From Octopus vulgaris (lineage: Eukaryota), in the NCBI GenBank assembly GCA_951406725.2, contig OX597825.1, positions 22,506,001-22,570,000 of the forward strand: DNA of 64,000 nt. Reading direction: 5' to 3'. Both the position numbers and the translations under genes were made by a program. Positions 11,889-63,441 of this stretch are shown piece after piece. Under the pieces are notes generated by a model, which had not been told where the DNA came from, ran no database searches, and worked only from the letters and a program-made list of their open reading frames with translations. Every line of letters begins with the position of its first letter. The stretch's first letter is position 1.

Positions 11889-12026
11889 ATGCAGCACGGA
11901 TTTTTGTCAGTGAACAGGTCGCGGATTTTAGCGACGAAAATATTTTGACAAATTAAATTAAATGTTGAAGTGAATCGAACGGCTTTTGTGTGTTTCTTAA
12001 ATGGCTTACAAACACCTTCCACGCTG
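11889..12026 (+). mobile_element. 138-bp hammerhead-bearing mini-element (Penelope-like pLTR derivative) with a 10-bp TSD
   Basis: Flanked by taatctattg at 11879-11888 and 12027-12036; homologous to both arms of 51546-51832. Confidence 0.85.
11903..11952 (+). ncRNA. Minimal type-I hammerhead-like motif, G3-C8 variant
   Basis: TTTGTCA|GTGAACA|G|GTCGC-ggatttta-GCGAC|GAAA|ATAT|TT|TGACAAA: 7-bp stem I, 5-bp stem II, palindromic stem III. Confidence 0.65.
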
Positions 12027-12159
12027 TAATCTATTGTGTATAATAATAATAATAATAATAATAATAATAATAATAATAATAATAATAATAATAATAATAA
12101 TAATAATAATAATAATAATTATAATAATAACAACAACAATAATTTCTTTTATTTAATCA

Positions 12160-12372
12160 TTTCTACTAAAGGCTCAAGACCTGTCATTTGGTGAGAAAGC
12201 ACTAGTCGATTAGATTGACCCCAGGATTCAGCTGGCATTTTTCTTATCGAAGCCGAAAGGATGAAAGGCGAAGTCAAACTCGGCAGCATTTGAATTCAGA
12301 ACGTAAAGACGGACAAAATGCCGCTTAGCATTTCTGTCCGGAATGATAACAGTTGTGCCAGCTCGGCGCCTT
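12160..12372 (-). mobile_element. SINE family B, older subfamily
   Basis: gaaaggatgaaaggcgaagtc..tttgaattcagaacgtaaagacgg..gctcggcgcc. Confidence 0.8.
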
Positions 12373-13757
12373 AGTTTCAAATTTTAACTTAAGATCTGTA
12401 ACTTCAGGACAGATGGAGTAGTCAATTGCAATGAAGAGCAAAATAAACTCCATTCTCATATAAACCTCACCTCTTTAAAAAAACATTTCTCTGACTGTCT
12501 AACAATTCTACCATCTCACCTACTTATTATTGATATTGACAATAAAATAGGTAATGTGATGAAATTACAAATATGAAGCAAAATTATGAAGCAAGAACTG
12601 GAATTAAATATTGCTAATAAAAAAAAAAATTCCAAACAATCATGACGAGAGAAAATTAATTAATCAGAAGTAATGAAGTAAATAATTTTTTCAGATCTAT
12701 TTATTATCTTACTTTAAAAGACGAAAGTGAATAGGCGGAGTGAACAGGAAATGAAAATAATGCTGACGTGCTGGATATCAAAAATTTCTATAAGTATTTT
12801 TTTTTCTGAAGTTTGGAACGCAAAATCTCTCCTTGTCTTGTCGTTTTTGTGTTTGCTTTGCAAGATTCTTGTTATGAATTCGTGTACTGAAAGGTTTTGC
12901 TTGATGTTTCAGTAATTAACCGAATGTTTATCGAAACGAACGATAAGTTAGTTACGTAAATAACTAACACGTTGACGAATAAGAAATACGTGAAACGCAA
13001 CCTGTGCATGTTATTATTGGCGTTAATAACACCCCAGACATGCAACGAAATATTGCAACCTTTTATTAATGATACTTGATTGTGACAAGATTTTGAATAA
13101 GGATTCTTCAGGGCACGCAAAGTTCAACATGCATTCTCTAGAACTTTATGTTATGTTTTGTTAAATTATGTGGCTCAATGTGCCTTGGTGTATAATTTTG
13201 AACCACTAAGCTAGCGTGCAGTATAGAATGCCATGAACTATTGGTTTCGAGTTTCTAAACTCTGAGTTCAAATGACGTCATTACAAAACTTGGTATCAAT
13301 CAGTGAGATCGTTAAAGAAAATATCACTCAAATACTGATGTCAATTTCTCTACCGAACACGCACACACACACACACATACTTTCTATCTCACTCTCTATT
13401 TCACTCTCTATCTCACTCTCTCTCTCTTTCAATCTTTCAAACAAACACACGCACGCACACACGCACACACACACATACACACACCATGTTTTAATTTGGT
13501 CTCGCTTCAAACATGCCTCGTAAGAAGTCTCAAAACAAGTGTGTTCGCAAACGTTGGCCCACAAAATAATGACCAGTATGTATCTACATCAAACACTTTC
13601 TTATCTTATATTATGTCGGTGGGCTTAAACTAACATATTGAATTCAGGTTCGTAATATCATCAGCGTGGTCCAATGACTGGGTAGTACATTGCAACGTTG
13701 GCCAAAAGACTCTACTTCATTTTATTTCACTCCGTTGAGCTGAAGCATGCGCAACAT

Positions 13758-14118
13758 AGGCGGAGGCATTGCTGTGTAGTAAGTAGCTTGCTTACCAACC
13801 ACATGGTTCCGGGTTCAGTCCCACTGGATGACATCCTGGGCAAGTGTCTTCTACTATAGCCTTGTGCAGACCAAAGCCTTGTGAGTGGATTCGGTAGACC
13901 GAAACTGAAAGATGCCTGTCGTATATATATGTATCTATACGTGTGTGAGTAGGTGGGTGGGTGTCTATGTAGATGTTTGTGTTTCTGTTTCATCTTCACA
14001 TCTATTGACAACTATAGGTGTGTTCTATCTATCTATCTATCTATCTATCTATCTATCTATCTATGCAAAGAATATCTTGAGGTCCATTTGTTCGACTAAA
14101 GTCACTAGCATGGCCGCA
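13758..14118 (+). mobile_element. SINE family A with an internal (TCTA)n replacement
   Basis: Head and CORE block intact; 3' part disrupted by ATCT repeats. Confidence 0.85.
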
Positions 14119-60063: not shown

Positions 60064-60180
60064 GAAGGTACTTGACTCAATGGTTAGAGCGTTGGGCTCA
60101 CAATCATGAGGTAGCGATTTCGATTCCCATACTGGGCTGCATTGTGCTCTTGAGCAAGACACTTTATTTCATGTTGTATT
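60064..60180 (+). mobile_element. tRNA-derived CORE-like SINE (family C type), 5' part
   Basis: tgactcaatggttagagcgttgggctcacaatcatgaggtagcgatttcgattccc..tgtgctcttgagcaagacacttt. Confidence 0.65.
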
Positions 60181-61843
60181 GCTGACGTTTCTATGACCGA
60201 CTAGCTCGGCATATGTAACCGATAGATTAAGTTACAGACTTTAAAAATAAAACTCAACTGTAGAAATGAATTGTGACGTCACTGTTGCGAGGATTATCGG
60301 CGTTTTTCTTTTCCTTGGATAACAGCTGTTGAGAGGGGTGGCTGGTATGCTTGGGAAACTGCTGCTCTTCTATAGCCACCTTCCCCGGACTTGTGACTTT
60401 GATGGTAAGATTCTACGTGCCATACCATGATCATTCATGACCAAAGGGAGGGGGGTTTCTCTCTCTCTGTCTCTTTCTCGCTGTATTCAAAGTGATAAAC
60501 TGGCGCTCATCGAGTCTAATCTATCAAATTCCTTTAAAATTTAATATGCACACTATTGCAACTTATTTCAGAATGTTTAATCTAATAAAGTCTTTGAGAT
60601 TTCAACACCTACATTCATACCATTCTCTAATCACTGCTTATACATTTAGTTGGTGATACGTTTACGTTGTCGAAACCAAAAAGAAAAACAAACGAATCAA
60701 GATACAATTGGTTTAATTTAAAGTTTACGTTACTTTTTTAAGTTTCACAAAATTCAGACGAAATTCTACAAAATTTTGTTGTCAGCTAGAATTTGGTTTC
60801 TGAATGAAGATGCTAAAAATAGCGAATTTTAAAGTAATTTCAATTAAGTCCAATATATGGTTTTGACATCAGGTTAGATGAATTAATTAAAGCAATTAGC
60901 CAACATGCAACCAGATAAATTGTAAATACCATTATATGATCGTATATTTAACAAAGATATATTTCAATTTAATTTGTAAATACTACGTACGGTCAAGATA
61001 TATGTTACTTTCGGTACGGAAGAACGAAGAAAGAGTTCATATAACATCGCGGATAATTATCAGCTACTCAGATATACATATGTCAACCGATCGGAACAAA
61101 ACGGCAGTTGCTTGCAGCTACGTGTAAGGAATCTGAGGAAGAGCCGATACTGCCATTGTCAATGCCATGCAAATGCGGTTAGTTACGCACACACGCACAG
61201 ACATATATATATATATATATATATATATATATATATATATATATATATATATATATATATATATATATATATATATATATATATATATACATAGATATAA
61301 ATATATATATATATATATATATATATATATATACATAGATATAAATATATATATATATATATATATATATATATACATAGATATAAATGTATATATATAC
61401 ATATACATATATTTTACAAAATACAGACACTCTTGAACGCATCTACAAAAAACGACATTTCCACCTCGGCCTTAGAATAACACAAACACACACGCAAATA
61501 TTAAAAGTGATACACTCAAAAGATTCATAAGAATACATTACAAACAGTCCCAATTACTGCTATAATCGATAACATACCAATTTTAAGTCACTTGACTATT
61601 TAACACCTCACTACTGTCATACTACCTATATTCCTTCTTATTCTCCATTCTCTTTCTTCTTCTTCTTCTTCTTCTTCTTCTTCTTCTTCATCTTTATTCT
61701 TATTCTTATTATCTTTATTATTATTCTCTTCCTCCTTCTCTTCTTCTTCTTCTCCTTCTTCTTATTGCCTACCAAGCATTCACAACGACCTCCAACCCAC
61801 ATGAGTAAACAAGAGAGACAGAGACAGGCAGAAATACGGAAAG

Positions 61844-62007
61844 TGCCACTTGTATTTGAACACTATGCAAATATTCTTTAAAAACATTTTTCTCTTAATT
61901 TCTCCAAAATTTAATTGTTTTCCATACTTACAGTTGAAAAAGTTTCAATGATTGAAACTGGTACTGAAAATTATTGTAGCATCTTCTATCTTGACTACTT
62001 TTTTCCA
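61844..62007 (+). mobile_element. Diverged single arm of the 38026-38437 family
   Basis: tgccacttgtatttgaacactatgcaaatattc..cagTTGAAAAagtttcaatgattGAAActggTActg..ttttccatat. Confidence 0.8.
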
Positions 62008-62050
62008 TATATATATATATATCTGTATATATATATATATATATATATAT

Positions 62051-63441
62051 GAGGTAGAAAATATTTTAGTGGGAAAACACACGTGGTGGATATATATATA
62101 TATATATATATATATATATATATATATATATATATATATATATATGGAAAGAGAAAACATGAAAAAACACTGATTTGTTTTACAGGACTTAAAAATATAA
62201 ATATATTAGAAGCATGATAATAAAGATATTATACAAGTTTGTACAAAATAAGGTTTTGTTCTTTAAATATAATTGAAGTAAGGACCCTTTTCGCATTGCT
62301 TATCAAACTGACAGTTGAAAAAGGCATATTGCTAGGTGAGATAAATGTTCACTCATTTATTTTGCTGTAAAGCGGGGGTAAATCTGTAATTTGTATTTTT
62401 TGCCTTTTTTGGTGTTCTCTACTTTATTCTGGCTTATATCTAACATTAGATATAGTAATTCCTTTATTTTTAATATGGGTTCATATTTAATTCTGGTTTA
62501 TATTTGTGGATAAACGAGGCCTCTTTATTGAGTCTTACTTGTGTTGAGTCCCAGAAGAGATGTTGATAAAATGGGAAAATTACGAATTCTTGTTTTAATC
62601 GTTATACACATTTGTCAGTTAAGTAATAGCCATACTTAATAATGATGAGTACTACGAAAAAAATCAACAATTACACTCGCAAAATAATAATGTAAAACCT
62701 CTTTTCAATAAGTCAAACCCATAGAAAAGAGTTAACAACTAAACGAAGTCGACTATTTGACAAACTTTAAATGTAAACCCAGCCTTTTCTACGGTCTATC
62801 TAAAATATACAGAAGCCAAACTATAAACGAGGCCATCAAAATTCTCCAAAGGCGTACATGCATATTCTAGCACCAGGAGACCTAAAACTATGGCTCACTG
62901 TCGCTGGACCATCCTGTGAAACACATCGATTAAGTTGCTTTATGGCCATTCGCCGGAAACCATTTCTAAAATGTATGTGCAGAACGATAAAAAACATTAT
63001 TCGTAATTTTCCCATTTTACCAACATGACTTCTGGGCATCAACACAAGTAAGACTCAATAAACCGGCCTCATTTATCCAAAAATATAAACCAGTATTAAA
63101 TATGAACCCATATTAAAAATAAAGGACTTACTCCATCTAATTTAAGATATCAGCCAGAATAAAGTAGAGGACACACAAAAGAAATTAGGTTTACCTCCCT
63201 TTTAATGCAAAATAAATGAGTGAATAATTTATCTCACCTAGCCATATATTTTTTGCCTCTAGCAATAAAACTTTTCAACTCTCAGATTGATGGGCAATGC
63301 GAAACCGATCCTTGCTTCAATTATGTTGAAAGAACAAAACCTTATTTTGTACAAAATGTATAGTATCTAGATTATCATGGCTCTATTATACTTCTAAATC
63401 CTGTAAAATAAATCGTCTGTGTTTTTTCATCTTTTCCCCTT
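62051..63441 (+). mobile_element. Penelope-like retroelement remnant: inverted ~470-bp pLTR arms around an RT fragment
   Basis: Arms ~62146-62613 and ~62975-63441; spacer encodes (frameshifted) EVDYLTNFKCKPSLFYGLSKIYRS..PGDLKLWLTVAGPSCETHRLS..KPFLK (Penelope RT FYGLPKIHK / LRPIV region); arm encodes FVIFPFYQH..RLNK..FIQKYKPVLN* (C-terminus after GIY-YIG); probable tail 62051-62090. Confidence 0.9.

Follow-up and report, generated by a model that had tools for sequence, protein, structure and literature searches.

Hammerhead-like motifs in the window

The stretch of DNA analysed here (the window) comprises 64,000 nt of the 2.8-Gb genome of Octopus vulgaris (assembly GCA_951406725.2, contig OX597825.1, positions 22,506,001 to 22,570,000, forward strand) and contains copies of six families of short elements, A to F, whose motifs resemble minimal type-I hammerhead ribozymes. 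Family A, identified below as the 5' end of a Penelope-like element (PLE), carries a G3-C8 pair in its core, the reverse of the C3-G8 pair present at the homologous site of a sister family. Positions follow hammerhead numbering, in which U4, A6 and A9 are core residues with functional roles. An earlier note on this DNA had proposed that six unrelated mini-element families share the hammerhead layout, with complementary bases at core positions 3 and 8; its observation is partly confirmed and its interpretation partly supported. All eight core 7-mers that it had named (at 11910, 28047, 38350, 46918, 50191, 51704, 61934 and 62300) were found at these coordinates. The features concerned are as follows.

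11889..12026, plus strand: family A mini copy, the 5' end of a Nematis-like PLE, with sharp 5' end, hammerhead-like motif, start codon at 12001 and short 3' end
11903..11952, plus strand: family A G3-C8 motif; stems I and II present in the minimum-energy fold, z −1.57
51490..51684, minus strand: family A inverted arm with long tail; core 51674-51668 with a copy-specific A8 and a change at G10.1
51683..51830, plus strand: family A arm with G3-C8 core 51704-51710, one mismatch in stem I and short 3' end, in (TA)n
37991..38220, minus strand: family B inverted arm with tail; U3-A8 core 38113-38107
38217..38437, plus strand: family B arm, the 3' terminus of a Neptune-like PLE; U3-A8 core 38350-38356, CCGG palindrome
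61785..62006, plus strand: older relative of family B, 73-75% identical; core 61934-61940, stem II decayed
62147..62616, minus strand: family C arm; GIY-YIG open reading frame (ORF) end 62616-62485, core 62306-62300 with A8 in this copy (family majority G8)
62970..63442, plus strand: family C inverted partner; ORF end 62970-63101, core 63287-63293 with U3.G8 and A9G
50065..50270, minus strand: family D mini element; core 50197-50191 with C3-G8 and the family-wide U4C; ORF link not found
27985..28151, plus strand: family E mini element; core 28047-28053; family state C3-G8 with A6U, window copy with G5A; ORF link not found
46700..46986, both strands: family F inverted pair; core-like 7-mers 46918-46924 (plus) and about 46757-46751 (minus); fails the hammerhead definition

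A strict type-I hammerhead descriptor that left positions 3, 7 and 8 free matched the window five times (11910+, 38350+, 61934+, 51674− and 38113−), compared with a mean of 0.37 and a maximum of 2 matches in 60 dinucleotide shuffles; the shuffle mean falls to 0.017 if a Watson-Crick 3-8 pair and a palindrome are also required. Two of the five, 51674− and 38113−, are the inverted partners of the copies at 51704 and 38350 and are additional to those listed earlier, and the match at 61934 lies in another register than had been proposed. In 948 kb of loci from this genome, 93 distinct matches fell into 12 clusters, and each of 12 shuffles yielded 0-2. Several of the copies named in the earlier note (51704, 62300, 50191, 28047 and 46918) individually fail the strict descriptor.

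The expectation that searches fixed on CUGANGA would overlook these motifs held. Family A fails a literal CUGANGA core, and Rfam returned no hammerhead for it at E ≤ 10 and no match in eight loci at the gathering threshold. For the whole window, no hammerhead was present among the 150 of 358 Rfam matches listed, all of which are simple-repeat matches, and the model Hammerhead_HH9 matches family B weakly (E = 0.0031; 20.9 bits versus a gathering threshold of 52). In this genome alone, at least 6,354 copies would escape a descriptor whose core is fixed as CUGANGA.

Family A, its sister family and the 3-8 pair

The family A motif in the window consists of stem I (11903-09/11946-52), core (11910-16), an extra G (11917), stem II (11918-22/11931-35), GAAA (11936-39), a palindrome (11940-43) and UU (11944-45), with a predicted cut after 11945. 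Stem I (7 bp) and stem II (5 bp) close the core in the minimum-energy fold; U4, G5, A6, A9, the GAAA, U16.1 and H17 are intact, positions 3 and 8 are complementary, and the palindromic stem III pairs at all six positions in a modelled dimer. Across the genome, an exact family A pattern with positions 3, 7 and 8 free has 6,354 matches (control, 0). G3-C8 is the state in 95 of the first 100 of these, in 75 of 77 family A arms, and in all 31 motifs beside 30 copies of the family A endonuclease (EN). Shared non-CpG variants within the family occupy four of eight positions in loop II and none of 41 in the core and stems (Fisher p = 3e-4, with non-independent positions).

The coding sequence shows that family A represents the 5' end of a Nematis-like PLE, a young element of 4.3 kb with a reverse transcriptase (RT) and a GIY-YIG domain. 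All 150 scored EN matches are 82-100% identical, and the best family A matches are 97-100% identical. A pattern reaching beyond the tail had 109 matches with a recurrent continuation, and two of 13 loci examined (L230 and L232) continue past the tail into an ORF that has RT motifs. At another locus, L237, the motif is followed by the start codon, then by RT, a short zinc-finger linker, the GIY-YIG domain, the 3' untranslated region and a second motif; the distance from motif to motif is 4,261 nt, and the terminal repeat is in partial tandem. Pfam has no match for pieces of this ORF, and its identity is based on the motifs and on 162 RT-like homologues. In RNA numbering the motif spans 16-65 and the start codon lies at 115, placing the motif just 5' of the ORF. 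On the 5' side the copies stop sharply, some 15 nt ahead of stem I, and on the 3' side they have two alternative ends. Twelve of 25 pattern-sampled sites, in (TA)n, have an inverted partner, the tail usually being on one arm.

Two further observations concern the element as a whole. A predicted fold of L237:318-521 joins the 5' end of the RNA to the last part of the long tail, a pairing that closes the entire 204-nt domain at the longer insertion end. Contigs of other organisms (C, D and B; runs X16, X17 and X7) cover the element, and its 5' mini part is far deeper than the ORF.

The sister family (P0001) is 54% identical to family A in the RT and 35% in the N-terminal 187 aa. At the homologous site before the ORF, 12 of 13 fetched copies carry C3-G8, and one has no motif. 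The sister family keeps the extra G and differs from family A by double swaps in the helices as well, from U-A to C-G in stem I and from G-C to A-U in stem II. This comparison is the best test of covariation, being made between homologues, and by sequence the 3-8 pair covaries between the two families. A natural reversed pair beside a homologous C3-G8 sister argues for selection on active-site geometry. The sister family also forms 4.6-kb tandem arrays (L286; G000:C19:14379000-14381350, minus strand) with many open frames of more than 1,200 aa that include an Asn-rich insert.

The pattern was also followed beyond this genome. Among 78 metagenome loci with a PLE RT, 15 descriptor matches were obtained, all sense and none antisense, with core pairs C-G (13), U-A (1) and A.G (1) and no G-C. 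With position 9 and stem III also left free, 14 sense matches and one antisense match resulted, and all 14 had A9 and a palindrome. Two metagenome relatives of the clade of A and its sister carry C3-G8 (L292) and U3-A8 (L293). Positions 3 and 8 form a Watson-Crick pair in 13 of 15 families of this genome (permutation p = 9e-5), in 11 of 12 families from metagenome PLE loci, and in 24 of 27 overall (0 of 200,000 permutations); these values are indicative and overstate independence, as the lists include family F, several families with one to three copies, and related families. For the six families first named, five have a Watson-Crick pair and the permutation p is 0.068. Reading the compensatory swaps as selection on the fold gains from the comparison of A with its sister, but is weakened by the non-independence of the families and by changes at other core bases.

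Families B to F

For each family, 25-30 best-matching loci were fetched. Family B, with copies 97-100% identical, has the minimal type-I features with U3-A8 in place of C3-G8 and, like family A, two 3' ends. Judged from their coding sequence, B and C are the 3' termini of Neptune-like PLEs. Their motifs follow the stop codon of ORFs whose ends carry a long CX2-5CxxC linker and GIY-YIG with CCHH; the window itself has such ends beside both family C arms (E 6e-5 and 8e-5). Pfam recognizes GIY-YIG in three of five B/C fragments, and RVT_1 in family B (E = 1e-6) and in the sister family of A (E = 0.004). Families A, B and C thus share the organization of PLEs, with a single ORF for RT and C-terminal GIY-YIG with CCHH, a terminal repeat in partial tandem, inverted truncated copies and a one-sided tail. 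The proposal of PLE-borne minimal type-I motifs is upheld by the ORF link of these three families, but family F is not a valid hammerhead.

Family C had been cited as U3-A8, which is not its family state: 35 parsed copies have U3.G8 (21), U3-A8 (5), C3-G8 (2) or other combinations (7). A is present at position 8 in 7 of the 35, slightly above other G columns, and a U3-A8 subfamily may exist as at most a minority. In family C copies (e.g., 63267-63332), stem II is quasi-palindromic with a 2-bp hairpin, and a distal helix of 7-8 bp extends stem I past a large internal loop.

The C3-G8 pair reported for family D is present, but 22 of 23 aligned copies, chosen for likeness to the window copy, also carry C4. 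The copies at 28047 and 46918 had been described as decayed, which is only partly right: U6 (with C3-G8) is the majority state of family E, and G5U/A6C that of family F. Families C (U3.G8 with weak stems), D (U4C) and E (A6U) therefore lack the full set of conserved core bases with a Watson-Crick 3-8 pair. Family F departs at G5, at A6 and in the stem I adjoining UH, and no register fits both its stems I and III. No RT-EN ORF near D, E or F was matched by tblastn in 75 loci of about 3 kb; their context consists of TA-flanked 3' ends and, for F, an inverted pair.

These families are also less independent than had been supposed. B and C are 52% identical over 166 aligned aa of the EN region, and D and E align with a score of 63 (maximum 43 in 500 shuffles). 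The named families probably lie in PLE termini, and "unrelated" is too strong: by sequence comparison they amount to about four lineages.

Seven more hammerhead-like families occur in the flanking DNA (L186, L040/L220, L248/L213/L043, L173/L070, L033, L065 and L022/L173/L217), three with U3-A8 and four with C3-G8; remnants of PLE EN or RT lie close to those of L186 and L065. G3.G8 (L022) and G3.A8 (L040) were considered as intermediates and rejected as singletons, the other copies of these families having C3-G8 and U3-A8.

Proposed function and alternative explanations

Comparison with published systems draws on passages of the papers cited here and, in addition, of PMC6765202, PMC3884650, PMC8495972, PMC6155905 and PMC6962438. 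The minimal PLE hammerheads of Cervera and de la Pena (2014; PMC4209133) are likewise of type I, with short palindromic stem III, G10.1-C11.1 and an extra base between 9 and 10.1, and lie in PLE terminal repeats, mostly as dispersed singles and some on opposite strands 100-700 bp apart. U3-A8 was known from PLEs, as the earlier note stated, with about 1,300 matches in Schistosoma, and so is U3.G8, in Saccoglossus (supplement of PMC4209133). Unlike the octopus families, the rows examined in that supplementary alignment contain no G3-C8, no cephalopod and no family-wide U4C, A6U or A9C cores. Natural 3-8 covariation and low-activity core variants (U3-A8, A6C) are also described by Perreault et al. 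(2011; PMC3088659), in which, in the parts considered, U3-A8 is the only natural 3-8 variant named and G3-C8 does not appear. Neither a natural G3-C8 hammerhead nor a paper on an octopus PLE hammerhead was found in the openly accessible papers searched; Lunse et al. (2017), on PLE hammerhead variants, may already contain the former. PLE minimal hammerheads and 3-8 covariation are thus already known, and what the octopus families add is a variant and a test case.

The element types agree with those of Craig et al. (2021; PMC8557442), in which Nematis and Neptune have C-terminal GIY-YIG with CCHH and a CX2-5CxxC linker. The linker is short in A and its sister, as in the Nematis rows, and long in B and C, as in the Neptune rows; the placement of A in Nematis and of B and C in Neptune would follow from linker and motif layout alone. 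Inverted 5'-truncated copies, a one-sided tail and microsatellite targets are shared with the PLEs of that study. Four motif strings (three from A, B and the sister family, one from D) had no match in one of its supplement files. Non-LTR retrozymes (PMC7229834; bioRxiv 10.64898/2026.07.22.740005) are likewise non-autonomous, hammerhead-bearing PLE derivatives, but are tandem units, whereas octopus copies are single or inverted and do not start at the cut site.

A functional parallel is the Poseidon element of Anolis carolinensis, PAc (Frangieh et al. 2024; PMC11167929), which has AT-rich targets and a hammerhead where the ORF begins; its RT starts at two internal sites, which gives rise to the tail. 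Family A, with its zinc-finger linker, belongs to another clade than PAc, whose ORF starts inside the motif, whereas that of family A starts 57 nt past the predicted cut. The anole hammerhead depends on protein, insertion in vitro does not require this hammerhead, and its C3G/G8C double mutant is partly rescued; G3-C8 is an engineered rescue in PAc and the natural state in family A. A published G3-C8 variant was more active without C17 ("data not shown"); family A has U17.

The explanation that we favor, as probable rather than secure, is that the motifs are minimal type-I hammerheads in PLE termini, with the fold and the 3-8 pair kept by selection on active master copies and cleavage being slow and assisted. 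In family A, cleavage would proceed only slowly, either in a dimer or assisted by the protein of the element. Its RNA would start about 15 nt before stem I, at the sharp limit; a PLE terminal repeat has been described as containing a promoter. Reverse transcription would begin at either of two internal sites, both within the first 90 nt of the ORF, and run back to the RNA 5' end, producing the thousands of mini copies of 140-210 nt. Most template RNAs would be uncut: because about 75 of 100 family A arms include the whole motif, their template must have been intact. At the genomic level, such mini copies support the view that RT starts internally on RNA that is mostly uncut. With a cut after U17 (RNA position 58), the RNA would lose its capped 5' end upstream of the start codon at 115, so that cleavage could act as a brake or a late processing step, with no requirement for insertion.

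A more ambitious version is put forward tentatively. Family A may be the first natural active G3-C8 hammerhead, fixed in a PLE family that was active recently; cleavage in its 5' untranslated region, dependent on a dimer or on protein, may decap the mRNA as a brake on copy number; the more than 6,000 mini copies, as cDNAs of the mRNA 5' end that reach from the start to the tail, may record internal RT initiation in vivo; and the sister families with A9C, U4C and A6U may form a natural, detuned series.

Several observations weigh against cleavage-competent hammerheads kept by selection. Some concern the copies themselves: about 75 of the 100 family A arms listed run through an intact motif, and the truncation point lies no more than 2 nt from the predicted cut in about five of some 25 truncated copies, a weak signal (scored by eye; binomial p = 0.044). 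Others concern the core, since successful families have altered conserved bases (U4C in D, A6U in E, G5U/A6C in F), all 12 copies of the sister family combine A9C with a stem III that is not palindromic, and family C has U3.G8 with a 2-bp stem II; A6U recurs in one metagenome PLE (L347). Non-pairing combinations also occur, as A3.G8 in one PLE-linked metagenome match (L360:1735) and as A3.C8 in one singleton here. The energy modelled for the active dimer of family A (−28.8 kcal/mol) lies 2 kcal/mol above that of two monomers (−30.8 kcal/mol), G3 pairs with U17 in the monomer fold, extending stem I, and fold z-scores are weak (−1.62 to +1.18 in nine window copies). Finally, related families inflate the permutation significance, and shuffled sequence still provides zero to two descriptor matches per replicate.

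Two lines of evidence were set aside. Neighbouring arms were considered as dimer partners, but they are inverted, not tandem, and read-through RNA would form a long hairpin. A non-genomic G, as expected from a cap, adjoins 19 of 30 arms ending at the first A; microhomology to inverted partners or target duplications explain many of these, the sample is biased, and the result was not used.

The strongest alternative, which we regard as possible although distinctly the less expected outcome, is that the fold is kept as a signal, either structural or for protein binding (in RT recognition, translation control or promoter overlap), and that catalysis has been lost in most or all families, including A. 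Such a role would accommodate the fixed non-canonical cores (U4C, A6U, A9C) of young or abundant families and the origin of most family A copies from uncut RNA, and would fit the anole element, in which hammerhead mutants leave insertion in vitro unaffected and no RNA-seq ends were detected at the cut site (PMC11167929). It does not readily explain, however, why two transversions together restore the 3-8 pair with U4, G5, A6, A9, GAAA and UH left intact in A and B.

A separate alternative, rather unlikely, concerns the 5' end of family A only, whose sharp limit would be a 3' splice site instead of a transcription start, by analogy with Penelope of Drosophila virilis. A branch-point-like motif, a pyrimidine tract and YAG directly precede the limit in full-length copies (30 of 31 EN-linked copies), and the D. 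virilis intron ends at helix I (PMC4209133). Yet the mini copies contain the AG and have no common upstream exon, and no GT-AG joint is present among the 14 joints listed from contigs of four runs, in a comparison that included only about 35 nt upstream.

That the motifs are neutral relics, with G3-C8 having arisen by chance in one master copy of A and spread by hitch-hiking, is very improbable. In its favor, the pair is confined to one lineage, no intermediate family was found, and the copies are young (97-100% identical among best matches), so that copy number does not count independent events. Against it, A differs from its sister by three compensatory double changes, variation among subfamilies is restricted to loop II, and 24 of 27 families have a Watson-Crick 3-8 pair.

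Selection on assisted hammerhead cleavage is retained as the favored explanation, and family A and its sister are matched natural constructs for an assay.

Two other kinds of repeat complete the description. At L201:2264-5164 (minus strand), a LINE that has RT and an AP endonuclease immediately precedes a truncated element of family B. In the window, a SINE-derived 184-nt unit forms two mutually inverted tandem arrays, at 45592-46261 (plus strand, 3.5 copies) and 52677-53276 (minus strand, 3.2 copies).

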